A stretch of 64,000 nucleotides of DNA, taken from positions 1,903,151-1,967,150 of the forward strand of contig CAJINV010000007.1 in NCBI GenBank assembly GCA_905178155.1, in the 5' to 3' direction. The notes below the pieces were generated by a model. It did no database searches. It was not told where the DNA came from and was given only the letters and a program-made list of their open reading frames with translations. The stretch is from Amoebophrya sp. A120. Lineage: Eukaryota; Protista; Dinoflagellata. Positions 12,163 through 33,700 of this stretch are shown here, piece after piece (the stretch's first letter is position 1; each line of letters starts with the position of its first letter). A program made the translations under genes and the position numbers.

Positions 12163-15100
12163 ATGGGTTCTTGCCTCGGCACGTGTCTCGCCAGCTGCTT
12201 TGGCGTATGCTACACAAAATCTTAGCTCTCCACCATCACCATGATGATCGCCATACAAAAGTTTTTTTCACTGCTGTGCAAGATGAAGAAAAGGAATTTA
12301 CGGAACGTGAATGGATCGCCATCACCATCACCATCGATCATTCGCGTCGAGTAAATATAATTGGTGTTTTGCATATAATGTATGAGAAAAAAAAAACACA
12401 GTGAGAGCGAGGAACAAGCTCCTGTGGAAGAACAACAACAAGGTTTTCCGTAGTTGCATAAAGCAGTTGCATGGGGAAATGCCTCACCTCCGGCCACGTC
12501 AAGAAAGACTCTACGATGCGGAAGATGTTCGCGTTTCTGCAGCTCTGGAACATCGTCTGGCTGTTCATGTACCGCTGGCTTGCACCGCATTATCAAAAGG
12601 AAAAATCCCCCCTCTCCATACTGAAAAGGTATATTTTTGGAAATTTGTGATGCTGATTTGTGGTCACATTGCAAGAAGGCAACTCCGCAGGCTCCGTCGC
12701 GTTTTGTCATGCTCTTGGGCCTACGGCCGCGCCGCTGTTTATCATGCTAAGCGCCCAGGCCGAAACCCCTCTACTCACACTTGATATGGGCCTGTAGTGC
12801 TCTCCAGCAAGAAAGCTCGGACTTGTGTGCACAAATCCAGCATCGGAAGTTTCGTTTTGATATGGGTTGGGCGGATTTTTCCTTTTGATACGCATGTCTC
12901 GAAGTTCCCGCTTTTCAACCACTTTTTTCTCTTCGAGTTTGGGATCATGGAATGCAACAAAGCAGGACGAGATGATCTTCATGGTGGTAATGCAAGAAGT
13001 GCGACTGCCCCAGGTGGTCTATCCTGTGCAAAATTATCGTACTCGTACTAATTGCAATCATGCATGACGAATCCTGTTTCTTAGCGAAATCAGCATTACA
13101 AATTCCATTTTTCCTTCTGGAAAAAATTGTATTGCGATTTATACTGGTGCGATACTTTTGCAATGCATATGGTCCAGATCAAAGCAAGATCACGGCTTGT
13201 TTTATGCTTGAGAATTACGAAGTAATTCGTTAGCACCAGTGTTGAGTCCATGGAAAAGAAGAGTCGTCTGCTCTCGTCTTCGTCTCGTCCATGTCTTCGT
13301 CATAAGATCTAATTGGTGGGTCGCGCATACCGCAAATAACGCGACGGCACAGGCAAGCGCTCTAGTTTCGTACTGGCCCAGTCTCGGGCGTCTAAAGTCT
13401 CTTACTAGACTAGAAATAGTAAGAAGTTGTTCACGTCAAGAGATCTGGGCTCCTGGCTCGGTTTCCGCATTACATGCGACGAGAGCGGCAACCTCGCAAC
13501 GTCTCTGCCTAGAGAAAAGCCCACTATGGCGCCCAAGTCGTTTTTGCGCAAAATCGAGTGCTCGTTTTGCAGCCAGAAGCGGTTGGCTCACACACCGCGC
13601 AACACTTCGCCCGCGTGTCCGAATTCTGAAGCCTGCAAAGGCGAGTGCTACTACTTCGCGAAAGACGGAGATTTGCAGACGGTGAAGAAGCATCGCACCT
13701 TCGTAGAAGCGACTTACCCCCTACCGAGGCTTCGCCTCGAAGACGCGAGCATCTGCGTCGACTGCAATCTTTGTAAGTTGTTCCCCGACTCCAGAAAGCG
13801 ATCCTGGGTATTTGATAGAGAAGTGGTCGAAGCTTCAAGCTTTGCTTCCAGCGTGGAAGACGATCCGGCATCAGCTCTCAGAACTCTGAAGAAGGCGAAA
13901 GCTTCGTACGAATATTCTGAGAAGTCTCCTCCTACATCTCTTCCGCGAAACTTAGGCAGCTCAGCTCTTGCAGACAAGCAGTCGCCCGCATCTTCTGAGA
14001 AGAATCCGGAAGCTTAAAGCAAAAGACATGCCGTCGCCGTCTGGATCCTTGTCTCAGGGCGTTGCCATGGGTAGCGACACGACCGTCGCTCAACAGGTCG
14101 AACCCGAAACGGCCGTCATCGAGGAGGAAGTCGCCGCAATGCGCGCGCGCCAGTTACTGGACCCCAAGTCGGTCGACTACCCGTTGCCATTCGACAAAAC
14201 CGGGACTGTGCACCGCCCAGACAACTTCGAGTGGATCCCGAGCGACACGATCTTCACCAAGCACGATGTCAAGTCCGTCGCTGTCAAAATGTACACCGAC
14301 AAACAAAGGATCACGGTGGTCCGACGATAACTGACTTACGACGGAGAAGCAATCACTTTGCGCTCCAAGGTGCTACTTTGTCTTTAATCTGTCTTGCATA
14401 TCAAGAGCGATTCACGCATCCGCACAAGCGTGCGTCTTCAACTCCATTCCCATCTTCATTCTCGAAGGTTCAGACCGAGCATCCGGCATACATGGCTGAC
14501 TCCCACGGCGACATGATTCAGAACGTCATCCAGCCCACTGAGACCCAGAGGGCCTGGAAGTGGGAAAACGGCAAGCACATCCGGCGCCTCCGCGCGCTCA
14601 CCATCGTCAGCAACGCACTCGATTACGCCACTTGGGCATACCTGGCGTTTTCCGATTTTCAGGACATCGAGTTGATCGCCAGCATGGCGGAGACAATCGG
14701 ATACGTCCTTGCGGACCAGTCCCGCGGCAAGGCGAAGTTGTGCATGCAGGTCCTCAAAGACTGGCTAGAAGTCCGGTTGGACGACATTCCCGATGGGAAA
14801 GCACCCGACATCGCTATGCGCAGTGCACTTTTCGACTTGAGCGTCGTGCTCTGCCCGCCCTTCGCAAACGCCAGCAAGTGGAAGTCCGCCTTTTGCAGAG
14901 CCAGTTTTGACCTGATCCCGCCCATTGCTACAGTGAGGTCCGTGGATGAAAGCCCGATGATCATCGTAGCGAGGACGCAGGATTATGTAAACGAGATTCA
15001 TGAGAAGAGACAGACTGACTTAGAGTTAGGAAAAGCTTTGCCCGGGCGCGTTGCTGACCAGGAAGGAATGTTGTAAGTCTGCGAAATTCATTTTCAGTGT

Positions 15101-18100
15101 TTTTGTTGAGACGAAAAGTCATCGACGTGCATTTTTTTGAAAAATGTATGCTGGCACTCCAAGAATAATTAAAATTTAATACGATTCCGCGACGCGGTCA
15201 GCTCAAAGCAGTGAGTGAGCATGTCAGCCGAGTTTGTTCGCCGTCACAAGCAAGATCTATGCCACTGCGTTACGATCTACCCGGAGCCTTTCCACGAGAG
15301 AGCATCTCCCTTTCGTCAAAAGTATTATCTTGAGCGAGAATTGTCATCACATGATAACAAACTCTCCTTCGTCTTGTAGTAAAAGTTATTAGTGCCCACC
15401 ATGACGGAACTCGTCTGCTGTGCGTGCTTTGACAAAAAAGATGAGGCTCTCTTCTTCATCAAATGCGCTGGCGCAGACTCCGCCACAGCTTGCGCCAAGA
15501 GGATCGGCATACATTTGCAAACAATGCGAAAAGGACAACGGCGCCATGTCCCACGGACACTTCCACACCGTCAACGTCCTCGACCCAGTTAAAAGCCGCT
15601 GTAAGACATGCAACGTAGCCAAGAACAAAAGCCGCATGAAGCAGGTAGCTTTTCGCTGTTTTCATCATTCTTGTTGCGTGCAGCGTTCATCGTTGTTTTC
15701 CGTCAAATTGGAATTCTCATGTCCCCACCGCACTCCTTCTCAGGTAGAAGATGAGTTGGAGAAAGCGGCTGGCGACAAAAAGGCCATCCAGCTGATAACG
15801 CAAGAAGAAGACTGGTTCCCGGAATGGGTCTGCATGAGTCAAGAAGACAAAAAGGAAGCGCGCCGCGAGTTGAAAAGACCCGCGCTTCAGGAGGTCGACG
15901 TCTCAAAGCTCAACTCACATGACCTTGCCATCGCACAGCAAGCACAGTCAGCGGCGTCTGCGGCCGCAGCCACCGGCGCGAACGCAGCCGCGTCGGAAGT
16001 CAGCAAGACCTTCAAAGAAATGAAGCGAATGAAAGTCGAACACAAAAAGACGAGGCTGATGCTGCTGCCCAAGCACAAAGGAAGCTTTGCCACCTACAAG
16101 AAGTTTCTGAGTAAGGTAGTGACTATTTGTTTTTCTTTTTGCATGACGGTAATGCTAGGCACTTACATTGCGATCGCACATAACTGCTCATCATTCTTTC
16201 CCAAGGTGGTCTTGCACTTCGACGGACAGCCGGTCGCGGTGCTAGCCAAGCGCCACCGCTTCCTCATCTCTTACATCGAGGACTCGTCAGCGCGCTTCTT
16301 GTCCAAGGCACAGCAGAACTCGGAGCCGGCATCCAATCTGTGCTACGCAGCCTACTTCTCCATTCGAAGTAGTGTTTTGTTAGACCTGTGAGCATGGCTT
16401 GTCTTCAGGCAGCCGGGTCCGGGCAAATTTCGACCATTAAAATCGGCATAAAAAACCACTAATATAAAAGTTGGGGCGGGTTGTGTTTCATTGGCTACGT
16501 GGCCTGCCTGGCAAGGGGCCCCATTTTGTTGCCTTCCCATACGTGGCGCGTGGCGCCGAGGAAGGACGGGCCGGGCCCCACCGGCTTTGGTGTTTTTGTG
16601 CCTCCACGGCCCCCGGGGTGTTTTGTTTGAGTTTTTGCCCGCCTCTCAAGCGCATGCACGCCGCGTGCCTTTTCTCTTTCCAGCTCCCGGGCTGCTTTCG
16701 CCGGGCTCCACCTGGATGGCAGCTGGGCCGGTGGGGTCTTCGGCCAGTCTATGTGGCCTCGCCGCGTTTGGGAAGGGGCGACGCGCGCTGGTGGCTTTGG
16801 CGTTTCGACAGGTTTCGTCCCCATCGGCATTGGCGCCGTCCCCCAGTCGGGGTCTTTTCGGAGGGGCGTCGCCGTTTGTTGATGGCCGACAGGGAGTGGT
16901 GGTTGTTGCGAAGGACTGCTGGGTTTGCAATAAACCCAGCAGTAACCTTCGCAATAACCTTTGCAATAATTGTTGCATTAAAAATGCAATAAAATGTGCT
17001 TTAATTTGTTTTCATTGAAATCCTTAGGGATTTCAGTGTTTAACAAATTAAAGCAAATTTTAATGCAAATACTAAACAAAAATTAAACTTAATTTAAACC
17101 ACAAATTACACCACTTTTAAAGCAAAACAACAGGGCCCGGCGAGTGCAGGGGGGGGCGTCGCCTCCGCGCCGCGGGGGGGTGTTTGGCGCGATTATTTCG
17201 GCAAGCAAGACCCGAGGTCCGCAGGTGTGGAAGCAGCCGGCATTTGTCCGGTGTTGCGCCGGATTTGGCCGGCGCGTCCGTGTCGCTTTGGTGTTTCTGC
17301 TGAAGGTGGGGCTGGGGTTGTCGTGTTTTTGCCCTCGGCCGGTTTGTCCTCGTGGGGCTTTGTTGGCCCCGCATTTTTTGGGGGCGAGGTGGACAGGGGC
17401 CAATGGCTCACCCGATCACCCCCATCCCGGCCCCGTTCCAGCTTGATTCCATCGAAACCCATAGGACCGGGGCGGCCGGGCCCCCCTGCCTTGGTCATGG
17501 CCAAGCCGCGCGGCGTTTTCGGTGTGCCCTTTGTGGGGTTTGGGGCCGGCTCTGTGGAATCAAAGTCATAACTTCGGCCAAGAAATTAAAGCATTTTTAT
17601 GCTGACACTACACCGGGCAGCTTGCCCGGGCCCGGCAGGCTGATTGTCTGTGTGCAGTTGTAGATTTGTGAGCATGCGTTCTATTCTCACCGCGCCCGTC
17701 TTCTCTAGGTTGCCATCGAGAAATCAAGCTCACGTCGCACATCTCCGAAGCCAAGAAAGCTCTGTGGTTCATGTTTTTCCAGCCACGCTTTTCGTTCGTC
17801 ACTGCCTGTAATTTGTCGAGCCCGTCCATCATGTCGGCCCTCATGAACGTCATTGAGTCCGACACGTCTAGAAAGCGCACGCAGCAGGATCAAGGTCAGG
17901 GTGGTTATTACGGCAAGTCTCAGAACAACAACGGCAAGGGCAGCTCGACTTTCTACCCGGCACAGCCCGCTTACGACTACTGTCCCCAGGTCCCATCCTA
18001 CACAACGCCACAGGCAGCAGCTCAGGGAGGAGGCGGCAATGCCTCCGGCATGACCAAGGAGCAGAAGCAGGCCGAAATCGCGCGTATTCTGAGCCAGGTG

Positions 18101-21100
18101 GTCAACAACCCCCAAGGAGCAGAGCTGAATTTTGAAGCTGCAAAAAAGATCGATCGTGGCCTCTCGTGCAAATTTTTCGAGGCGAACGGTCATTGCCGCA
18201 GTTGCTACATGGCAGGCTTTACGTTTCAAAAGAAACATGAAAAAGGCCTGAAAAGTTGTGAACTCGCAGGCACGTCTTTGCTGGGGTAATGCAAAGCGAG
18301 TGTCTTCGTAAGAGTTTCGCTCTGGCTGCATAAGAAACCCATTCTCAGGCATCCCCTGCCATATTATCTGTGCGAACTGCAAGTCGGCCAAGCACTGGCA
18401 GTCCCAATGCACAGCTCCGTCGGCAAAAGGCAAGCCAGGAGGTGGAAAGCCAGGTCAGCAGCAGCAGCAGCAGGGTCCGCCCATGATGAAAGGTGCTCCC
18501 CCAGCGCAAGCATACGCCCAGGGCGTCCCTGGCGCAAAGGGAGGGCCGCCGAATGTAATGCGCGCCCCGTCGTGGTAGTCAACGGCTTGAACAGCTCGCC
18601 ACATGTACAGGAAATCAGCTGTAAGATGAAACTAGATCGACGCTTTTTTGTTTGTGTTTCCAGTGGCATCGATGCTGACACTTAATTGCCATCCCATTCG
18701 CGCCATCGCTCAGTCAGGAGCTGCTTTCATACAGTCTGGCGCTCTGTTCACATTCGAAGTGTGCTTCTCGTCGTACTTTTCGTCATATTGCATGTTGGTG
18801 CGCATCGTTGTAATCTTTGATATGGCCCTTCGCTACAGATCAGACCACCGGTCGGCGTTCTTGGCAACTGCTCTCACATCAGATCAGCCGAAGGATGTCG
18901 TTGCTTCAGATGAACCCCAAAAGAGCGGCGAGCTCAGCTCTTGCAACTGAGTACGCTCAGGAGCGCGAGAAGGCAAATCCCAAGCCTCAGAAGAAAACGA
19001 AGGCAGACTCCGACGCAGTCAAAAAAGCGCTCGCAGAAGCAGCTGTGGCCGACATTGAGCCAGACGAGGCCCCTTTGTACTTAGCAGAAGGCACTTCTTG
19101 GCGTGATTTAGATGATCCATCACGTAGCATCGTTTCTTCTAAATTCCTTTTCGTCTCATCTGTATTTTTTTCTCAGGTAGCATAGCACAGGCTCCAGCAG
19201 GGGGCAATCAAGCAGTGCCCGCGCTGTCCAAGTCAAAAAGCACTTCGTCCGCCAGCAGCGACTTCGTCTTCGCCGAAGCCGTGTCAGATTTTGAAAGCTT
19301 GAAGCCACCTGCATCGTCGGCGTCATCAAGTTCAAAGCCCCAGGTCGCAGTCGTCGCGCCGGCGGAGAGAAAAGCCGCGGCAGCATTGAGCCAGCACATG
19401 TCCTCCGGCATGCCATCGCGTGAAGCTGATGACTCGAAGTTGAAGGGTCAGATGAAGTCTTCCGAAGTTTTCTCTCAGAAAGATTCTACTGAAGTTAGCA
19501 CTTTCCCACAGGGTCCAAAGTGGTTCGATGCTTTCCCGTTACGCGACGACGTAAGAAAGCAACTTCTCAAGTCGTCTTATGTTTTTGCAAGCAGTAGCAT
19601 CGCACCGTCTTCGTGTAAAAATTTTACGAACATTTTAGCAGTTGTAGTTCCTCGAGTGTGTAGACAACTCGGAGTGAAGTTATGGCCACTCACCAATGAG
19701 CTGGGGCGCAGTTTGTTTTTCGCGACCTTTGCTACTTACAAGTCGTGCCATTTCTCGCACTTGAACGACAGAACGAATAAAGTCAACTGGTCGGCGTTCA
19801 AAAGCCTAAGTGCAGCCATCGGAGCTTACAACTCCTGTCGTCCAGAGTGTGACACGTATTCGCTACGCTACAAAAGCAGACCCTTCGCACGCATCTGGGA
19901 AGGATTCAAACGCAATGCAACTTTGCCTCTAAATCAGACCTACAAACTTCAGCCCACTAGATACCAAGTAGACTTAGTCCTCACAAAAGCGCGCCAGGAG
20001 TCCCACATCCACTGTTGTCCTCCCGGGTTCCTGTCTCATCAGCCTCCAAATTATTTGGAACCTTATTTAAATTCGAAGCAAGCCCTCTCGGCGGCGCAAG
20101 ACTACCAAACTGCGCTTCTGGCAGCGATGCAGTTCTACGGCGTCCGTCGAGGAGCCGAGATGCGGGAGTTGCTAACCGACAGCCTAGCTCCGAAGTATCT
20201 TTTTCCCGACGCCCCAAAGGAGGCGGAGCGTTACTGGTGCTTGCAAGTAGTCAAGGCAAAAAATGACGTTTATGCGCAAGGCAATTTTTGCGTTTTGCCT
20301 CTGTTTTTGACACCGCGCGCCACAGCTTGGATGCGCTGGGCTGGGGCTTTCGTCCGATTCTTTTTCAAAAAGGAGTACTTCGCAGGGAGTTGCAGTTTAT
20401 TTTTCGTAATAGGCAGCACGCGCATCAAATCTCGCGGCACTCCCTTGTCGCAAGATTGCCTCAGAATAAAGCTAAAAGCACTGCTTGGGCAGTATCTACT
20501 CCCGAAAAGCAAAAAACTGCCCGGCCCAGTCGCGTTAAGACGAGCAGGAGCCACTCGCGTGGCCTCCATGGATAGAGCAGTGGCTTATAATCAGGGTGGC
20601 TGGAGAAGCAACAAGATGTTGGATGCCATTTATGCCCCCTTAACACGCGAGGACTTAGCGCGGTCAATGCAAAAGCATTTCCCAGAGTCAGCAGCTCTGG
20701 CTCACTTACGGCGCGCAATAGTTAAAGTTGAAGAAGCTTATGTGAAGAACGCTTTCAATTTAGGCAGTCTCCTCATCGGCCTGCAAGACATCCCAGTGAG
20801 TGTACCGCGCGAAACTTTTGCGCGTCTAGCGCCAGGGCTGACAAGGGCAGCCAAGTTGAACTCTTTGAAGGATGGTTTTCACAACGTCTACTACCGTCTT
20901 GGACTAAAAAAATAATCATTTCGCTTTCCCACTGCCTTGTCGCTGACAAAGCACCGTCGGGAGTTTGGCCCAGTCGTTTGCTCTCCCATTCAGGCACGCA
21001 GCCGTCTTTCTGTTGTCGTTCACTTCAATTGTCAACCACCAGTCACTAGCGTGGAGAGAAAGCCCGGCAAATGGAGCAGCCCCGGGAGTACGTGGCCGAG

Positions 21101-24100
21101 AGCGACCCAGCAGTTCCCACGAGAGAAGGGAGAGAACTAGGCATAGTTCCAGACCCAGGCATGTCCATTCGGGACTACATAAGTATGGGACTGCCTGCCG
21201 CCAACTTGTCCGCCCTGGAGTTTCTGCAGTCGCAGGAAGGGCCCGACGACAAGTGGCGGCCGGTCGAAGACTACCTCACGTGGCAGGGGACCGCGCTCAA
21301 TCCCTTCATGTTGGCACGCTACGGGCTCAGCCCTGCCTTCATGGAGCGTTTTTTCGGTGGTGTAAAATTCGACGTGACAGTGGACGACTTCAAAGTCAGC
21401 CAGGTCAAGAATTACAGCGGAGCCACGACCTACGAAGATTATTTCACCGAAGAAGTCTGGCGCTTTATCCACAGCAAAAAAGTGGTAGTGTACGAGGACG
21501 ACGAGCCCCCGGATCTTATGATCGCCCCGGGAACAATACTTAAGCAAAGAGCGAAGTACAGGTATGTTCTGTTTCTCATGACACTCATGTCTTCTAGCGC
21601 ACGTCATAGCCCGCGTCATCTTCTCATCATCACTTAGGTTGGTGGCCGACTGGTCCAGCCCGCAAGTAGCCGCCAGCCAGATGCTGTACAGTACACCAGT
21701 CCAGTATAGCTGCTGGCGGTCTCTCTTCGAAAAGCTGTGTCCGGGAGCTCTGGCGTTTGGGCTCGACCTGGCCGATTGCTACGCACACTGGCCAGTGCAT
21801 CCCAGTCAGCGTCGCCTACTAGGACTAGACATACCGCAGACGGGAGCGAAAGCGTGCCATTGCTTCGTGCCATTCGGTATTTCCTAAGCTTTTCATGCTT
21901 GTTTTCACACTTGTGACTACGCATATGCTTCGAGTCTCATAGTCGCGATTTCTCGGCAGGTATATCACCTGCCCCCGGCAAGAATGATGAGGCGATCAAG
22001 GAACTCACTCGTATCCAGTACCGGGCCGGATTAACGGCCTGGCTACTGGATTACGTCGATGATATAAGGGGCGTCCTCCCCGCCCCGTGCAGCACGTCAA
22101 TGGAGCACACCGCGCGCGAATTCCAAAAAACATTCTTCATGTTTTCGCTGTTCGGTTGTCAGCTACATGAAAAACCAGGAAAGAAAATCCCGCCGACAAC
22201 AAAGCTTCCATGGCTCGGGTTCGAGTGCGATACGGAAGCAATGACTATGGCGATAGAAGAAGAGCGCAGAGAGCAGTATGCGATCGACGCGCAGCAGTTT
22301 CTAGATGAGGTGTCTTCTTCTCCCTCGCTAACAACGACAGCCAAAGCGGCGGCAAAGATTTGCGGCAAACTGCAGTCAATCACCTTCATCCTAGACGGCC
22401 CGCTCAGGGGCCTGCAAGACGCGCTCAACGCCTCCGGCTGCTACCGGCTGTGGCAGTCGTCGCGGGATCACAGTCCCAAAGTCTCGCTGTCGCACGAGGT
22501 CACTCAAGACCTGAAGTGGTGGGTGCACGAAATCAACCAAGTGCCGAAACGCAAGCTCCACTACTACGGAGGCAGGTGCTTCCTGTGGGGCCAGCATGTG
22601 TTAGAATTCGGAACGCAATTTTTGAACTCCATCCCGCCGTCGGCCTTTCTCGTCATCTATGGCGACGCCGCAACGGAAACCGGATGGGGCGGCACATGCA
22701 GAGGAGTGCACTACCAGGGTTTCTTCCCGCAGTGGATCAACCAGCACGACATAAACGCGAAAGAAAGTGCAACCCTCCTCATCGTCTTGGAGTGCATGGA
22801 AGCGCGCGGCGAGCTCCCACCAGGAATGCTCGCGCTGTATTATACGGATAACTTCACAGCAAAGAAGTTCGCAAACAAAGGCAAGCACACCAACCCGGCA
22901 TACTGGGTGGTTCTGCACCAGAAGACTGAAGTCATTGCGCCAGCGCAACCAGCTGGAGCTCATCGGGGCCAAAGTGCGCGGCTTGCGCAACATCGTTGCT
23001 GATTGTCTCAGTCGTTTCGACGATCACGTCTTCTCTTTCTGTGATCCGGAGCCCGAGCGTTGCCTAAACAACCGGGCATGGAGTCACATCATGAAAAAAC
23101 TGCCCGACATCGCCATCGAGTGCTTTGCGTCGTTAGACGACTCCGACAAGACTTCGCGCCTAGCCACGAAGTTCACGTCCCAAAACATGCCGCTCCAGAA
23201 CTTCGAGCAAATCAGCAAAGAAAAGTCGCGGTGGTTTCCACCAGGCGACATCGTCTACCCCGCAGTAAAATTTTTGCAAAAAACAGCACAGGGCATCCCG
23301 CTCGCGAACCGTCCGAAGTTCGCGGCTTTCCTTCCAAAAGCAGGAGGCAAATTTGCTCCGATGACATCCTCCTTCTACAGAGCAAAAATCTCGCACAAGA
23401 GGGGCGCTAAGATCTTCAACAGCAAAAATCTCGAAAAGGTCGACATGCCGGCCGACGATGACTACGAGGTCTTTCTTTCGGTGCCCATCGAGCAATGGTC
23501 TTCCACCACAAATCTCATCACGATCGAGAATCCACAGCACACGAAACTACTTCAAAACGCAGTCTTTCGCAGGTCTCTCAATCTACCAGGAAACACCGTC
23601 TGCAAATGCATCGCCCAAGCGTCGGAGCAGTTGATCGCGCATTTGTGTTGCACTGATCCGGTCGCGCCTAAAGGAGTAGCAGAGTTGGTCTTTGATAGGT
23701 GGCCATGTGCCAACGCTTATCCCTTACCAGCTTCCCAGAAGCCATGCAAATCGTTTCAAGTCATGCATCCGATTGCTAACGTTCACTCCATGTGTCATCC
23801 AGGGCCGCCGAAGGCGGATAGAAACTACGACACATACCAGGAGCGCCTAGATGCTTTCAATTCATCAATGTACAGCTTAGCAGTCTATTGCAGCAGCAAC
23901 GGGGTCAAGTCTGTGGCAGTCCCGTTACGCATTGGCTGCGGTCTCAATGGCGGCAAGATGTGTGATTACGCTCTCACTTTGGGCCGCTTCTTCATGAAGT
24001 GCCGAAGCTTCGGCGTCATTGTGCGACTCTATGAGAATCCCGACTCTCTGTGAGCATATTCATGCGCACGCTTTTTCGGCCCAAGAGCCGTCACAGTTGT

Positions 24101-27100
24101 CTACTCTTACCATCCCAAATGGTGCCCACTGTGCCCCATATGCGTCTGCGCGCAAGGAGTCGAACTCGTGTTCTTAGCACATTTGGTCGCAATGTGTGAC
24201 GGGTTCCTCGTAGCCAGGCGGCTAGTCGGATCGTATGGGTGCTGGGCAAACTACACTCTTCGTATTTCTCCAGGACGATAAATTTTATGCTTGAGAATTA
24301 CGAAGTAATTCGTTAGCGCCAGTTTTGAGTCCATGGAAAAGAGGAGTCGTCTGCTCTCGTCTTCGTCTCGTCCATGTCTTCGTCATAGGATCTAATTGGT
24401 GGGTCGCGCATACCGCAAATAACGCGACGGCACAGGCAAGCGCTCTAGTTTCGTACTGGCCCAGTCTCGGGCGTCTAAAGTCTCTTACTAGACTAGAAAT
24501 AGTAAGAAGTTGATAAAGCCGCTTTTTTCATCCCACCCACCTCGCCCTGTGAGGAAGTCACATACAGGGATTTTGTTCACTCATCGTCACTGTTCGTTGT
24601 GTGAGTGTGTCTATCGTCTATGCATGGAAAACGTCTTTTCCATGGTCTCGCCTTACGCTTCTCACTAGTCGCCACGAGCTCCGTTCAGCGTTGCGTCTGC
24701 GCGCAAGGAGTCGAACTCGTGTTCTTAGCACATTTGGTCGCAATGTGTGACGGGTTCCTCGTAGCCAGGCGGCTAGTCGGATCGTATGGGTGCTGGGCAA
24801 ACTAAACTTTTCGTATTTCTCAAGGACGATAAACTTTCAACAGCAAGCGACGGAGCGGGTGTTTCTCTCGTTCGCGATCCTCTTTCTGATCTTGATTTTC
24901 CTCTCCGCCTATCAAGTGTAAAAATGTCTGGGTCTGGAAACTTGTGATGCTGGGTGGCGTCTCATGATGAGGCTACAAATGCTGGCTCAGCATGACAAGT
25001 TTCTGAGCTCCTAGGTGTTGCCCCCTATTCTACTGCACGACAAACTGCGCTTCTGCATCACAGAAAAACGGAGCTCTTGGGTAACGTGCGTGACAGATTT
25101 AGCAGTCATGCCAGACAAGCATGACAAACATGAATTCTTCCAGACCCAGACACTTTTACAGTTGATACGGCCATCGGCGCCACGAAGATTGCGCTCAACA
25201 AGTTCTGGGGCGCGAAGCTGCTGACCCCGGTGTTTCTTCCGTTCCTATATCAAATGTAAAAATGTCTGGGTCTGGAAGAATGCAACTTGTAATGCTGTCT
25301 GCGGATTCTAAAAATATCTGTGTTGCATGAGCAGCAAGAGGACTCAGCTCTTGGCACGCGGAGAGGGCATTTCTCATGCGTAATTAGCATCGAGCTCGAG
25401 AAGCTCTCAAAAAATCTGTGATGCTAGCACCAGCATCACAGACCTCACGGGTCATGCAAAATGTGCATGACAAGTCCCGACTCTTCCAGACCCAGACATT
25501 TCTGCATCTGATATCCTATTCGCGTTTTTGATTCCGAACGACTTTTTCGGGCTGCAGTCGTGGCTGTACTACACCTGCGGGGGGGTCTCGTTGTTTTACC
25601 TGACCGCGCAAATGATGATTTTGTACGACTTGGGGCACAGCTGGAACAAAACCTGGGTGGAAAACGCGTTGGAAGCGCAGCGGGAGGCAATCGTGAACCC
25701 GAACGCGTTTCTCGGAGGGGGCGGTAATCGCAATCGGGACAACAATTCGCATTCCAACTTTTTCCGCCAATTTCTCCAATCCAGGCCAGGAATCCTGTGG
25801 TACTTGGGAATCCTCCTTGCGACCATCATCTTCCTGACGATCGCCGTCCTGGTATCATTTGTAAAAACGTCCCCACCGCATAGTCAAGTTTGGAATCTAG
25901 CAACACATCAAATCTCCAAGTTTTGGGAGCTGTGCATGACAAGTCTCCCTCTGCAGTGTAGTGCTGATTGGCAAGAGAAGCTGCATGAGAAAGTCATTTT
26001 CACATCCTGTTTATAGCATTACAGATTTTTCCAAAACACGACTGGAAATTCCTCTCATGCAGCTGCGCATTACAAATGTTCCTGTCATTGCGCATTTGCA
26101 TGACAACTCTGGTGTGGGGACGCTTTTACTCAGGATACCTGGCCGTGATTTACCTTCCGTTCGTCGTGTACGCGAATGAACCCAACCAGTACGTCATCCT
26201 GATTTCGCATTTTCTAAGCGTCGCCTTGTTGATCCTCTCCGCCAGCGACTGGTGCAAAAACGGTGCCATTCTACCCAGTGCACTACTGGTAGCATACTTC
26301 GCGTGGCTACAGTGGCTGATGGTGCTGCAGCGCCCGGGGATAGTGGTCAATGGCCCCGCCGCCCAGCAGGGTCGTGGGTCTTATCTTGGAGGTGCGCGGC
26401 AAGCAGATGAACACCCCCAGCACCAAGAAATCCTGAGCGAGCCCCGTGGGACGATGCCGCCGACTTCTACTTCTTTTCTCCTACCTCTCTCGGCACAGAG
26501 ACGATCATATATTTCCAACGGTGTTATCCGGGCTTTTGCGGCTGATAGTGTTGTACTTTCTCCACAGGAGCAACATCATGCAGTGTCGCACCAGAATGAT
26601 CTTCTTCAATCCAGAATCATCAGCTACGAATACAGCGATCACGTCCCGATGACCGCAGATCGCTATCTCTCCTGGTGGGTCGGGTTGACGATCATGCTGG
26701 TTTGTTTTTCCCTTTTTCTAAGGAACCCGAGCCTGTTGCAATTGGAAGACGCTGAAACGGCGGAGGACCGGAACTTCGGCGCTCGGAATGGGGAAGAGGA
26801 CTTGGAGCAGTCTGACTCCAGCGACGAGGAGCAGCAGGCCACGGCTGTGGTTGGACCGGAAGACGGAGATGATCATACGACCGGAGATCTTCAAGATGGA
26901 GACGCCGGTGGCCGAGAAGAGAACACCTCCAACCGTATCCAAGAAAAAAACTGTGTTGGTGTAACTATCTTTGGCAGACAGCATCACAAATTTGCTCTAC
27001 ATGACAGAGAAAGCCTGTCACGCGTGGCTTGTAAGGGAAAACACACATGAAAAGAGAACTTCGTGGCTATCTGGCATGACAGGTGTAACTTTGTTGCGTG

Positions 27101-27681
27101 TTCTACATTACAGATTTACGCTTACGCGACAGCTTTTTTCTTGCATAAACCGTCGGCGCCGTTTAATCACGACGGGGGGACCGCCGAAGGAAGAAACGCT
27201 CTACTTCTTGACGATCCACGCGGTATGGGAGTGTCAGGATTGAAATTGTCAAAGTTGAAAATGAAATAGTTTGTCATGCATAAAATGCATGACGCGAGGC
27301 GCGTGTGTTGCAGAGCAGGCAAGTGAGGCCGATTGTAAGCCTGTTTGGGCTTAGCGCTCGAGCTGCTGAAGTAGTATGACAAAATCAGTCTTCTTTGCCT
27401 AAGCAGCATGGCAAACTGGATTTAAGGACTACCAAAATTTGTCATGCGCCACTTGGAAACTGGGTTGCAACTGGCATCCATTTTATGCATGACAAATCAT
27501 TTCAACTTTGTCGATTTCAACTCTGACGCATCCATACGCGGCTTCGGCGTTTTACTTCCGCTTCCTGCTGTACCAGAGACAAGACTTGGTTGGCTACTGC
27601 ATTCTAGCGGTCGGCTTGTACGCAAACATAGTCCTGTTTGGCTGGGCGCTGGTTCGCCCGCAGATTTACCCGGATGAGTAG
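12163..27681 (+). CDS. Serinc/TMS1 (serine incorporator) family multi-pass membrane protein, interrupted by 7 introners and the YR retrotransposon
   Basis: N-terminus MGSCLGTCLASCFG; reconstructed motifs CFQQQATERVFLSFAILF, LNKFWGAKLL, FYLTAQMMILYDLGHSWNKTW, NGAILPSALLVAYFAWLQW and C-terminus FGWALVRPQIYPDE* match the Serinc consensus. Confidence 0.85.
12591..12890. mobile_element. Introner family A
   Basis: TATCAAAAGGAAAAATCC...GGATTTTTCCTTTTGATA TIR, TSD CGCAT. Confidence 0.9.
13020..13169. mobile_element. Introner family D (150 bp)
   Basis: TAT...ATA, TSD TGGTC; highly similar to 32324-32473. Confidence 0.9.
13200..13429 (+). repeat. Split direct repeat A1
   Basis: 230 bp; about 4 mismatches (counted by eye) versus 24283-24512. 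Confidence 0.95.
13526..15076 (+). CDS. Retroelement 5' ORFs (Cys-rich Zn-finger-like N-terminus plus helical domain), structure unresolved
   Basis: MAPKSFLRKIECSFC...CPNSEACKGEC...CVDCNLC (13526-14017); ORFs 13968-14330 and 14231-15076 with protein-like composition. Confidence 0.5.
15401..18578 (+). CDS. Gag-like protein with Cys-rich fingers and a CCHC zinc knuckle, multi-exon
   Basis: Frame-compatible introns 15645-15743, 16116-16205, 16369-17708 (GT-AG) and 18216-18348 (GC-AG); C-x2-C-x4-H-x4-C knuckle CANCKSAKHWQSQC at 18369-18410; stop at 18576-18578; the 5' part appears frameshifted. Confidence 0.7.
16405..17643 (+). other. ~1.24-kb imperfect rod-like fold-back inside a Gag intron
   Basis: Symmetric pairing about the loop at ~17024-17026 (GCTTTAATTTGTT..GAAATCC/GGATTTC..AACAAATTAAAGC); ends CAGGCAGCCGGGTCCGGGCAA / TTGCCCGGGCCCGGCAGGCTG; several internal helices checked, with many G-U pairs. 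Confidence 0.85.
18817..20915 (+). CDS. Tyrosine recombinase (YR) of the retrotransposon
   Basis: GVRRGAE (catalytic R), KAKND, VALRRAGAT (HxxR box with H replaced by V), GGWRS...AIY (catalytic Y at 20631); upstream exon joined by the GT-AG intron 19124-19176. Confidence 0.88.
21071..24053 (+). CDS. Pol-like polyprotein: RT - RNase H - DIRS-type adenine methyltransferase-like - Macro domain (2 introns, one apparent frameshift)
   Basis: KYRLVADW, GLDLADCY, VPFGISPAP, YVDD (22052-22063), WLGF; RNase H motifs GDAA, INAKE, YTDN, NIVADCLSR; MT-like IECFAS...WFPP; Macro IAHLCC..KGVAELVFDRWP...SVAVPLRIGCGLNGG; introns 21562-21637 and 21877-21959; +1 shift near 22905. Confidence 0.9.
24141..24282 (+). 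repeat. Split direct repeat B1
   Basis: 142 bp, near-identical to 24692-24833. Confidence 0.95.
24283..24512 (+). repeat. Split direct repeat A2
   Basis: Near-identical to A1; directly abuts B1. Confidence 0.95.
24692..24833 (+). repeat. Split direct repeat B2 (right terminus)
   Basis: Near-identical to B1; followed by CTTT and then Serinc exon sequence. Confidence 0.95.
24910..25167. mobile_element. Introner family F
   Basis: TATCAA.TGTAAAA.TGTCTGGGTCTGG TIR; TSD CCGCC/CGGCC (1 mismatch); frame restored (FLSAIGATK). Confidence 0.88.
25248..25513. mobile_element. Introner family F
   Basis: Same TIR type as the 24910 copy; TSD TCCTA. Confidence 0.9.
25853..26137. mobile_element. Introner family G
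   Basis: TATC..GTAAAAACGTCCCCA / TGGGGACGCTTTTAC..GATA; TSD CCTGG. Confidence 0.88.
26936..27147. mobile_element. Introner family E
   Basis: TATCCAAGAAAAAA...TTTTTTCTTGCATA; TSD AACCG; reverse-complement homolog of 32555-32763. Confidence 0.9.
27224..27536. mobile_element. Introner family C
   Basis: TATGG..GTCAGGATTGAAAT TIR; TSD CGCGG; similar to the 29136 and 31444 copies. Confidence 0.92.
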
Positions 27682-28529: not shown

Positions 28530-30117
28530 ATGAGGCAACATCATCGCAACAGACGCGCTCATGCCGCCTCAAATAAGAGCAAGGCCGCAGGAGCGTTGTT
28601 GTCGCTCGCAGCAGCAGTGGTTCTTGGCTCGCACAACTACAACTGCGGCGTTCACGGGTTGAAAATGTTGGCAGCCTTGATACCCCCGCCGATGCAGGGA
28701 ACTGCCGCGATCTTCTCGGGTTCTTCCACCTCCTCCTCCGCGCAACTTCTACAACCGGCAGCTTCCACCGACGCAGCTGGAGGCGGTGTTGCAGCTCGCC
28801 CGACCCTGCAGCAACTGCAGCAAAGTGCTGATAAATCCAAGGTCACGACCTGGTGGGACCTCCCGCCGCATTTGCAGTGCATTTTTGGGGCCGACATGAA
28901 ACCTCTTGCGGGGTGTCGCGGCGAGAAGGCCACGAAGGAAAAGCCAGACGCACGAAAGGACGCGGATGCCGTCTTTGCCGCGAGAAATGCGCAAATGATG
29001 AACATTCTGGAGCCACCGGAGCGGAAAGCTATGCCCATGATACAGCGCGCAATGGAAGACCAGCGAAAGAAATCGGCCGCCATCGCGAAAGAGTTCCAGG
29101 CGAAGATTCGAAAGCACAACAACGAGGTCGCGAAATATGGAAGCGTCAGGATTGAAATCCTCAAAGTTGAAATAATTTCTCATGCAGAAATTGCAAGGCA
29201 TGAAGTGCCTCTCTTGCAGGGATTGCAAAGGAGGCCGGTTGTGAGCCTGTTTCGGGTTTGGAATAGAGCTGCTAAAGTAGCATGACAAAGGGCGCCTTCT
29301 GTCCCTAAACAGCATGACAAACTGGTTTTAGACGGTGCCGAAATTTGTCATGCGCTGCTGGGAAATTGGGCTTCCAGCTGGTATCGAGTTTATGCATTAC
29401 AAATAATTTCAATTTTGACGATTTCAATCCTGACGCTTCCATACGAAACAGCAGGATCCTAATTATGACGCGACCGCGGGGGCGGGTGCCGACGAGGACG
29501 ATGGATTTCAAATCGTGGAAGCGCTGCCGCAGATGGATCCGAAGGTCAAGCGGGAACTTGAGGAACTGATGTGGGACGCGCTGGCGGCGGACTACCACAG
29601 CCGCGGCCAAGGGTGCAACTTGGTCGGTGCGACCCTGGAGAAGACCAAGGAGAACTGCAAAAAGGCACTGAATTACGAACGGCAGATGGAAGTGAAGAGA
29701 CAGCAGGAGCAGGTGCTCCTAATGCACCAGCAGCAGCAGGCCCTTCAGGCGGCCGCCGCGCAGCAGCAGGCGCAAGCATGTGCGGCGTTTGCGGCGCAAC
29801 AGGCCCAAGCGGTGATGGTGCAACAGCAAGTAATGATGGCCGCTGCGATGGGTGGAGCTGCAGCTGCACAGCAGCAGCACCAGGCAGGTCAACAGCAGTT
29901 CCAGGTCCAGATGATGACGGCCACTCCAATGGTTGGTGTTCCCTACCCTGGCGCGGGAGTGGTCGTACCACAGGCCCCGCCCGCCGCTGCAGCAGCCCCG
30001 GCGAACATTTTCTCCCTGATTCCGGGGGCGTGCGCTCCGAAGTGCCCACCGCCGGCGCACGCACCGGGTGGAGTGGACGGGGGCAAGAAAGGAAAGGCTA
30101 AGCCGAAGGCGAAGTAG
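28530..30117 (+). CDS. Hypothetical secreted/membrane-anchored protein with a Q/A-rich C-terminus
   Basis: N-terminal hydrophobic segment; ORFs 28530 and 29515 fuse in frame after introner removal (VAK|QQDPNY). Confidence 0.7.
29136..29443. mobile_element. Introner family C
   Basis: Perfect TIR TATGGAAGCGTCAGGATTGAAATC; TSD CGAAA. Confidence 0.95.
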
Positions 30118-30734: not shown

Positions 30735-33700
30735 GTGCCGGCGATCTGGTTTCTTCTTTGTTTCGTGGCCTACTACTTGTTTGCCCAAGAAAAAGATCCT
30801 GCTCCTTGTGCGAAAACGCATCTTGACCACGTCTTTCATCTGATGTTTTATCATATGCTTTGTAATTGTAAACTACAATTCGCCGAAGACAATCTAAAAA
30901 CCCAGGCAGCTCAAAAAGAACCACATACCATGGTTTTGGTTTTGCTCTAGAACATCTGATGCTTTGATGCGCCGCACCCACAGAAACTGAAACGTACGAC
31001 TACCACAATATCGATGAATGAAATGCACAAGAAAATGCGGGTCTCCGGGGACGTCGACGAGGCATCTTCTATGGGCCAGCCCGCGGAAAAAATCCGCAAA
31101 GTCAAAAACATGGAGTGCCGCGGCCGAGAGGGTGTTGAGCGGGCCGCCGGTGCGGCGGTCGGTGGGAATGGGACGCGGACGGGACACGAGGAACAAGGAC
31201 AAGACAGTAAAAAAGCGTCCAACTACACTATCCTCGATAGCCGGAGGCTTGCTCTGGATCGCAACTTCGTCGTGGAACTACAGAAGTGCAGGGCCTCCGT
31301 TCTTCCTGCAAAGTTCGTGCCAAATCAACATGGTTCAAGCACAGGAGGGGCACGACCCCGCCACCATGGAGGGACTTCTGACCCACCCCGCCAATCGGGT
31401 CAGCGAACCACTGATGCTGCTGCGATATCTCGCAGCCGAGGACTATGGATGCGTCAGGTTTGAAATCGACAAAGTTGAAATAACTTGCAATGCATAAAAT
31501 GCATGACCCGCGGTACGTGTGTTGCAGAGCAGGCAAGTGAGGCCTATTGTAAGCCTGTTTAGGGTTAAAGCTCGAGCTGCTAAAGTAGCATGAGAGAATC
31601 GCTCGTCTTTGCCTAAACAGCATGACAAACTGGATTTAGGGACCGCCGAAATTTGTCATGCGCCACTTGGAAACTGGGTTCCAACTGGCATCCATTTTAT
31701 GCATGACAAATTATTTCAACTTTGTCGATTTCAACTCTGACACATCCATAAGGACTCCGAAGTTTTGTACGACGAACTGGACAATTACTACAGCGACACA
31801 ACGGAGTCAATATCTACACAACGACAGAATTCTACTACCCGAAGCCTACACTCTCCCGAAGGGGCCCGGGAGCTGGTGGAGCAAGTAGAAATACAAGAAG
31901 ACCACCGGGAATGGGAAACGAGACCTACATTGATGGCCGCGCTCCACCAGAACCAGAAGAACGAGAAGATGAACTCAGGCGGACATCAGCAGCACGAGCT
32001 TTTCGACCAAGCCACGAGCTATTCCCTGAAAATGAACCACGACCCCCATCCAATTTGATGTCATACCAGAAACATGTAGGAAATTCTATTCTGTGCTTGT
32101 CATGCAAAATTAAACAAAAAGTGAATCATGGGGAAGAATTGAAAATTTTCAGGGAATACGAGCTCGGCGACCACCAGCCCAGTGTACCGAGTGAATCGCA
32201 CCCTGGAGTTCCGTTGGCGGTCATTTCTGATGCGGGAGTTTGTGCGAACACACTCGTTTCCGAACGGGCAGCGGAATAAAGACGGAACCGAGAATTTTTG
32301 GAAAATTGGAGACGGTGCTTACATATGCTCTGCAAAAGTATCGTATTCGTACTAATTGCAATCATGCATGACAAATGTTGTTTCTTAGCCAAATCAGCAT
32401 TACAAACTCCATTTTTCCTTCTGAAAAAACTTGTATTGCAATTCATACTAGTACGATAATTTTGCAATGCATATTACACGTACTGGGGAAAAGACGCGTG
32501 CGTGCGGGACCTCGCGCGCTGGTCGGTGGAGCACCCGCTCGGAGCCAAAGTGCTTATGCAAGAAAAAAACTGTGTAAGTGTAAATCTGTGATGCACAAAA
32601 TGCAACACAGTTATACTTGTCATGCTCGACATGCATGATCGGCTCGCTTCCTATGTGTTTTCCCTTACTATCTGTGCATAACAAGTTTTACCTGTCATGG
32701 CAGACGAACTTGTGATGCTGTTTTCCGAAAAGACTTACACTTACACAGTTTTTTTCTTGGATAGTGCTCCTGCCGCAGTTAGTGTGGTTTCACACTGACG
32801 ACAGACAATACACTGAACAAAAACCGAGAAGAATTTCATCTCAAACGCTAACGCTAACACAGCTTGTGTCAGCTCCATCTTCTACTTCGTTGTCGCCGAA
32901 TGAAGGAACGAATATTGCGGAACAGTCTTCGGAGACGACGAGGAAAACGCTCACCAGCAACGTAGCAGACAATAACGATTATGGCCATGGTGCTGAAGGT
33001 CCTGCTAGACGTACAAACCAGTCTGATCAACAAGCGCAAGCGCTCTCCCTGTACGCGACCCTGCAGCAGTGCGAACAGACGAGGCTGGGTAACTTGAACG
33101 TTGTCGATTTCTTTCTGGATCATGCAGATGTTATTGGTGACACGAGGAACGAAAATGACACCGTCAGTGGGACTAGCGATAGTCCTCCAGCAATGGGACG
33201 AGCTCGCCAGCACGAGCAGCAGCGTGGAGCTGCTTCTGAAACTACAGGAGAGCAACACGGTCGTCCCTTGAAGCTGTTGAAGGAGGTGTCTTACATCTGC
33301 CTTCCGAAGAGCTGCGAAAAATCCGAGAACACGCGTTTTTGGACGGAGTTCTTCACCTTCGTCGCGGAAGCGCGGACCGTCGCGGGACTAGTTTCCTGGC
33401 CGACGTGGAGCAGGCTCTTCGATGCTTTAACCCCATCGGGAATTGGCTCACCGAGGTGGCTCCACGACTTCCCTCGTGTGAGCAAAGTCGAGCCGTTGGT
33501 GGTCGGGTCTTTTGAGACAGTTGCAGTAGGAGACCATCACGGGAAAGCAGTAGTTCCTGCTGCAAGACGACAGACCATCACGGGAATTCTTCGTGCCTCT
33601 GCCTGGCTGAACCATCGGCAGCAATGCCTCGCGAGGGATTTGTTTATCAAGCCTGTGCGGGAATCGAAACGCGACTTTGCACAAAGAGCCGAAATAAAGA

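Follow-up and report, generated by a model that had tools for sequence, protein, structure and literature searches.

A macrodomain with a substituted active site ends the Pol of a PAT-like DIRS-order retrotransposon

Why should the Pol protein of a retrotransposon end in a macrodomain, and does such a domain still remove ADP-ribose? The question is raised by a locus in the window, the 64,000-nucleotide stretch of DNA analysed here, where a preliminary description had read a macrodomain of the Poa1p/TARG1/DarG class fused to the Pol of a DIRS-order element and had suggested that it may be a counter-defence module protecting the cDNA or circle of the element. The domain belongs to an 11.6-kb element (13,200–24,837), whose parts outside Pol are as follows.

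13,200–13,429, plus strand: split direct repeat A1, forming the element's 5′ end (230 nt long, with 4 mismatches to A2)
13,430–19,142, plus strand: 5′ coding region with several Cys-rich ORFs, interrupted by a multi-copy insert
16,407–17,642, strand unassigned: the multi-copy insert, with imperfect ~21-nt terminal inverted repeats, delimited by read depth and ends
19,143–20,915, plus strand: ORF of 590 aa, measured from stop to stop, that lies upstream of Pol and likely encodes a tyrosine recombinase
24,141–24,286, plus strand: split direct repeat B1 (146 nt, 4 mismatches to B2)
24,283–24,512, plus strand: split direct repeat A2
24,692–24,837, plus strand: split direct repeat B2, forming the element's 3′ end

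The split direct repeats in the order A1-ORFs-B1-A2-B2, a methyltransferase-like (MT) domain in Pol and the likely tyrosine recombinase make this a PAT-like DIRS-order retrotransposon. The split repeats and the RT-RNase H-MT arrangement thus uphold the order to which the element had been assigned before. In the available text of PMC3266345, MT and split repeats define PAT-like elements, and Ngaro and VIPER lack MT; a Ngaro-like or VIPER-like assignment was rejected because the MT-like domain is present here. The ORF upstream of Pol is likely a tyrosine recombinase, with moderate support from Atlas feature matches (language-model features, 0.96–0.97) to Phage_integrase, ALOG/integrase and NDC10_II clusters and from R..K..xxR..W..Y motifs read by eye; it gave no Pfam match. 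The Cys-rich 5′ ORFs are gag-like by position only and belong to no known family, a Pfam search with them having returned nothing above the cut-off. Further likely introns were noticed in these 5′ ORFs.

The terminal repeats differ at 8/376 sites, indicating a fairly young insertion. In Logan contigs from one sample (runs X1 and X2), read depth over Pol was flat and single-copy, and no second copy of the element at 80–85% identity was found in those contigs, which show presence and not absence. Depth in run X1 rose to 130–230 over the insert at 16,407–17,642, compared with ~43 over the remaining element. This 1.2-kb insert, nested in the retroelement, has near-matching 8-nt flanks and internal palindromes. 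Three RNA runs of 2026 with the same species label, in which the presence of the organism is unproven, gave 1–3 reads each and none on coding parts. In run X7, which we guess to be RNA, a 325-nt contig, placed at 24,141–24,200, contains the B2 repeat and its upstream flank, and the coding region is absent from it. Run X1 also gave very high depth over many short inverted-repeat elements of 150–310 nt with TAT...ATA ends. They resemble introners or MITEs, and the retroelement has two of them near its ends.

13,020–13,170; 24,910–25,167; 27,224–27,536; 29,136–29,443; 31,444–31,750; and others: short inverted-repeat elements

Within Pol, the reading frame is broken once. Its features are listed here.

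21,071–22,918, plus strand: three exons encoding RT and the greater part of RNase H (21,071–21,561; 21,638–21,876; from 21,960)
21,562–21,637 and 21,877–21,959, plus strand: GT-AG introns of Pol, from predicted splicing
22,919–22,922, plus strand: one-base frameshift within RNase H, with the stop of the upstream frame at 23,000–23,002
22,923–23,500, plus strand: RNase H C-terminus (NIVADCLSR) and DIRS MT-like domain (IECFAS...WFPP)
23,598–24,053, plus strand: ALC1-like macrodomain, the C-terminal end of Pol

After presumed splicing of the two introns, the upstream Pol frame comprises 563 codons with no stop, contains the motifs LDLAD, YVDD, GDAA, NAKE and TDN, and matches the RVT_1-bearing protein P0152 at E=1e-80. 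Because two GT-AG introns are kept in a retrotransposon Pol, the RNA that is copied would have to be unspliced. An MT-region profile matched the Dam-bearing DIRS Pol P0164 (probability 96%, E=2e-9), and the domain order is a likely tyrosine recombinase, then RT-RNase H-MT-like-Macro. The two frames that flank the frameshift align end to end across the break with P0152, P0004 and P0003. An intron at this position was ruled out, since any frame-restoring GT/GC-AG intron would take out 22 nt or more of sequence that aligns. An assembly slip is unlikely because contigs of two runs (X1 and X2, one sample that is possibly the source of the window itself) show no indel at the site. The present copy is dead: short of a ribosomal frame shift, the full fusion cannot be translated from it. 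The proposed fusion to Pol is therefore correct in part: the macrodomain is in frame with the RNase H C-terminus and MT (22,923–24,053), but RT and the bulk of RNase H are separated from it by the one-base frameshift near 22,920.

The plus-strand frame that holds the macrodomain begins at 22,755 and stays open until the stop codon at 24,051–24,053, whereas the other five frames contain 5–9 stops each over 23,598–24,050. When the residues encoded from 22,923 on were used to scan 1.84 billion proteins with HMMER, 254 matches were obtained at E≤1e-3, and for 144/150 among the matches listed the best stretch fell within the last ~170 query residues. A profile built from 110 homologues, with the query left out, recognized the macrodomain at E=4e-30, while the reversed control did not score; the glocal score (z=26) was reached by none of 200 shuffles. 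PHROG 335 also matched (E=1.6e-5). Pfam Macro gave no match to the window macrodomain itself, whose sequence matched TARG1 and alphavirus macrodomains in the PDB only weakly (E 0.65–1.1).

An AF2 model computed with a 111-row alignment reached a pLDDT of 92.5 over the macrodomain; with the macrodomain alone pLDDT was 40, so that the model leans on the homologue alignment. Structural comparison of the AF2 model by VIA ranked DarG first (Z 17.3, rmsd 2.3, 139 aligned), followed by Bt_1257 (Z 16.9), DarTG (16.3), Poa1p (15.2), an alphavirus chain (14.9) and TARG1 (14.8). By Foldseek, Poa1p had the highest TMq among the matches listed (0.76), E-values alone put alphavirus domains first (TM about 0.7), and the best viral model match was a Marseillevirus UDG fusion (TM 0.80). 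The profile of the homologue family, compared with the PDB, placed Bt_1257 (E=4e-16) and the SCO6735-type 5E3B (3e-12) first, then Poa1p, DarG and TARG1. Family profile and VIA together identify an ALC1-like macrodomain whose nearest subgroup is SCO6735/Bt_1257; it stands closer to the ALC1-like class than to structures of MacroD, macroH2A or PARG. The preliminary description thus named the right domain and the right class: the peptides that it quoted lie in the plus-strand frame ending at 24,051–24,053, profile and fold agree, and the AlphaFold/Foldseek check that it suggested returned the macro fold, with the nearest subgroup now placed at SCO6735/Bt_1257.

The window domain falls in a separate HQCNC/IGCGLAGG clade of macrodomains found in protists, metagenomes and viral contigs. 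Elsewhere members of this clade are fused to NADAR, UDG, SRAP, Pif1, RNase H or PARP-like+RING+Deltex domains, partners that point to work on nucleic acid and ADP-ribose. Four proteins (P0172, P0170, P0176 and P0180) combine a weak PARP-like match with a macrodomain of this clade, a RING and a Deltex C-terminal domain, a chain that recalls the animal PARP9-DTX3L pair. One such protein comes from the dinoflagellate Effrenium voratum, and the wider group thus possesses a host ADP-ribose system. In P0179 a macrodomain of the same clade ends a protein with recombinase-like motifs, and in P0057 and P0132 it follows zinc-knuckle or protease-like motifs; these motifs were read by eye, and Pfam gave no support for them. 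P0179, P0057 and P0132 are possibly further macrodomain-bearing mobile elements.

Whether the window domain can still cleave depends on its active site, where the family profile maps window residues His19, Leu20, Cys22 and Met69 to SCO6735 His24, Val25, Asn27 and Gln85, respectively. Three stretches are pertinent.

23,649–23,651, plus strand: Cys at the SCO6735 Asn27 position, which is Asn in 167/173 homologues
23,790–23,792, plus strand: Met at the position of SCO6735 Gln85, DarG Lys80 and TARG1 Lys84
23,931–23,954, plus strand: phosphate-binding loop IGCGLNGG, retained

The Gln85 column is Gln in 173/173 protein homologues and 37/37 viral-contig homologues, and the window domain is the only row that departs from it. 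The Asn27 column is Asn in 33 of the 37 viral-contig homologues. The loss of the catalytic Gln, invariant otherwise, is unexpected. At the adenine end, Gly-Asp is replaced by Lys-Cys, by which the binding of ADP-ribose should be weakened. According to the available part of PMC9411070, TARG1 Lys84 and DarG Lys80 share the column of SCO6735 Gln85, Asn27 holds Gln85 in place, and on DNA Q85A abolishes and N27S nearly abolishes the activity of SCO6735, for which a water- and backbone-mediated catalysis via Val25 is proposed. The window domain, with Met in this column, has neither catalytic Lys. At the position of TARG1 Asp125 the window domain has Asn. Other features are kept, including SCO6735 His24, the Lys-Gly loop, Gly126 and Gly128 of the phosphate-binding loop, and 26 of the 37 positions with a conservation of 70% or more among the 110 homologues. 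Each of the changes Asn27 to Cys and Gln85 to Met requires two base substitutions, as do 10 of the 12 changed key codons. Given that the terminal repeats differ so little, these residue changes likely predate the insertion.

With two key active-site residues gone, the window domain likely no longer cuts, and its present form is likely a non-catalytic binder. The hydrolase and counter-defence reading proposed earlier is weakened for the present copy, in which Met and Cys stand for Gln85 and Asn27, Lys-Cys stands for Gly-Asp, and the frame is shifted. We consider it quite unlikely that the window domain is still an active de-ADP-ribosylase shielding the cDNA or circle from a host ADP-ribosylation defence. 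The retained His24, Lys-Gly loop and phosphate-binding loop would suit such an enzyme, as would the Leu at the Val25 position, where backbone catalysis is proposed, and the Effrenium voratum protein (weak PARP match, E=0.002) would fit the corresponding host system. Against it, the Gln85 and Asn27 equivalents, at which a single mutation abolishes or nearly abolishes SCO6735 activity on DNA, are both replaced, and Lys80/Lys84 and Asp125 of DarG/TARG1 are missing as well.

Relatives of the Pol give a view of the domain's history; those with a named source come from Amoebophrya, which suggests a syndinian-type host for the window element. The Amoebophrya sp. A120 protein CAD7939283.1 (P0003), a 481-residue gene model, carries RNase H-MT-Macro in one frame and is colinear with the window at ~25% identity. 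Its macrodomain keeps the Asn27- and Gln85-position residues, departing elsewhere by Ser for Asp and Cys for SCO6735 Gly128, and may still be active. Between the window and P0003, identities amount to 38/120 over Macro, 35/105 over RNase H and 38/147 over MT; Macro is as conserved as RNase H. An alignment search returned only P0003 and generic DIRS Pols, and a word-index search with the macrodomain alone returned no matches. Two metagenome scans and one viral scan yielded no related Pol loci, and no relative of the window Pol was found at the 37 viral-contig macro loci.

In an RH-MT tree of 8 rows, built without reference PAT, TOC or kangaroo sequences, the window grouped with the metagenome protein P0004 (82/86), and P0003 with P0129 of strain AT5.2 (94/93). 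The two macrodomain-bearing Pols are not sisters, since pairing the window with P0003 in this tree was rejected (p-AU 1e-4). Among the 6 related Pols the macrodomain is clear in 2, the window and P0003. P0152 and P0129 end without it, and P0125 is a fragment. The tail of P0004, the nearest Pol relative, scored z=1.8 against Macro (8/200 shuffles, hhalign probability 0.4%) and may be a vestige. Absence from other copies had been named beforehand as an outcome that would count against the domain; a second, distant element (P0003) has it in the same place, but P0152 and P0129 do not. One old capture followed by losses and two separate captures both fit.

The macrodomain trees speak to the same history. 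In a quick macro tree (64/174 rows, 5 starred branches of 61), the window domain had the longest ingroup branch, 2.41 compared with a median of 0.69. Holding the window and P0003 macrodomains together was not rejected (p-AU 0.80, 32/174 rows), and the P0003 macrodomain paired with P0178 with an SH-aLRT of 85–90 only. P0178 (Amoebophrya A25, CAD7964202.1) is a stand-alone macrodomain split by a ~390-residue low-complexity insert; it is a possible host donor of the domain in the P0003 element.

These data allow the domain to be a passenger under relaxed selection, captured once, slowly decaying, lost in sister lineages and without a present role. The longest ingroup branch, the loss of catalytic and adenine-end residues, the vestige at most in P0004, the lack of the domain in P0152 and P0129, and a sole copy that is dead and single all suit such a course. 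A decaying passenger is nonetheless harder to square with a frame open over the entire domain, with the 26/37 conserved positions kept, and with Macro conservation relative to P0003 that equals that of RNase H although the Pols are not sisters (p-AU 1e-4), and we judge it rather unlikely. The latter two points argue instead for selection on the fold. The reading of the window form as a binder has to be held against the same long branch, which also fits relaxed selection, and against a clear domain in two elements only.

A further possibility is that the domain processes nucleic-acid ends in the element's own cycle, such as RNA or cDNA ends or Appr-1''-p-type by-products, and has no part in counter-defence. 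Poa1p is among the top structural matches by both VIA and Foldseek, and RNA processing has been proposed for NADAR domains in retrotransposons in part of PMC12477816. Most DIRS Pols, close relatives included, do without the domain, so that it is not a core step, and the pocket residues are lost in the present copy; we find this explanation very unlikely.

The account that we favour, although we regard it as about an even call, is that Pol acquired an ADP-ribose eraser, the ALC1-class macrodomain at its C-terminus, by capture, and that in this sub-lineage the domain became a non-catalytic binding module. The available text of PMC9411070 describes ALC1-class enzymes as taking ADP-ribose off thymidine in ssDNA and off Glu/Asp in protein. 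The ancestral domain would have travelled with RT and stripped ADP-ribose from thymidines of single-stranded cDNA; as the last part of Pol, such a domain would be located on the new cDNA. Alternatively, its substrate may have been acidic residues of Pol, much as SCO6735, DarG and TARG1 act on their own substrates. In the lineage of the window, selection would then have preserved both fold and phosphate-binding loop while the hydrogen-bonded Asn/Gln pair changed to Cys/Met. Because this pair was swapped and the fold and loop were kept, the window domain would bind phosphate-bearing ligands, either ADP-ribose tags or cDNA, without cleaving them.

A broader version would give the syndinian DIRS clade a Pol-linked ADP-ribose module with two branches, an active eraser as in P0003 and a dead reader as in the window. 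The module would exist because the host ADP-ribosylates the single-stranded cDNA of DIRS elements, and the dead reader would shield tagged cDNA or steer the recombinase complex to ADP-ribosylated chromatin, much as chromodomains steer chromoviruses. We think this two-branch arrangement unlikely.

Compared with known elements, the present one resembles PAT, TOC and kangaroo, as described in parts of PMC3266345 and PMC6681497, in its A1...B1-A2-B2 repeats, tyrosine recombinase and RT-RNase H-MT, but it differs from them in the macrodomain after MT, the recombinase ORF upstream of Pol and the spliceosomal introns of Pol. With SymbioDIRS-Dnmt3 of Symbiodinium (PMC5890265, in part) it shares a host of the dinoflagellate lineage, repeats in the order A-coding-B-A-B, the capture of an accessory enzyme by Pol and a shuffled recombinase/Pol order. 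The capture described there is an active cytosine methyltransferase in many copies, whereas here it is a macrodomain in one dead copy seen. Members of the SCO6735/Bt_1257 subgroup (PDB 5E3B, 2FG1, 2AFC; PMC9411070, in part) share the fold, His24 and the phosphate-binding loop with the window domain, and the homologue family and the P0003 element keep Asn27 and Gln85; the window domain differs by Cys and Met at these positions, by Lys-Cys for Gly-Asp and by its separate clade. TARG1 (OARD1) and DarG likewise share the fold (VIA Z 14.8 and 17.3), but their Lys84 and Lys80 have no counterpart in the window domain.

Other retroelements also carry ADP-ribose-handling domains. Macro ORFs occur as additional ORFs in fish epsilon-like endogenous retroviruses (part of PMC4977317, citing Basta 2009), and Gypsy elements of Ectocarpus and Tx1 elements of oyster bear NADAR domains (part of PMC12477816); these hosts of the domain belong to other orders, however, and NADAR is another fold. 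The passages available of PMC12957317 and of a chromatin-evolution preprint contain no macro-transposon fusion. The literature searched, with subscription journals and Repbase outside its scope, yielded no report of Macro in DIRS elements. The Macro-Pol fusion in a DIRS element is thus apparently unreported, in line with the preliminary description, whose author knew of no such domain in this order.

With a macrodomain on a DIRS Pol, one more retroelement order is seen to have captured domains that handle ADP-ribose, here from a macro clade that is not that of TARG1. This lends support to the idea that the nucleic acid of retroelements is tagged by their hosts. The cDNA made by DIRS-1 is for the most part linear and single-stranded (PMC7192593, in part), and single-stranded cDNA is the type of substrate from which ALC1-class enzymes remove thymidine-linked ADP-ribose. 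If both domains prove inert, the case would amount to yet another passenger carried by a dead element. As natural variants, of which one retains the catalytic Asn/Gln and the other lacks it, they make the choice between eraser and reader directly testable with two small domains and assays that already exist.
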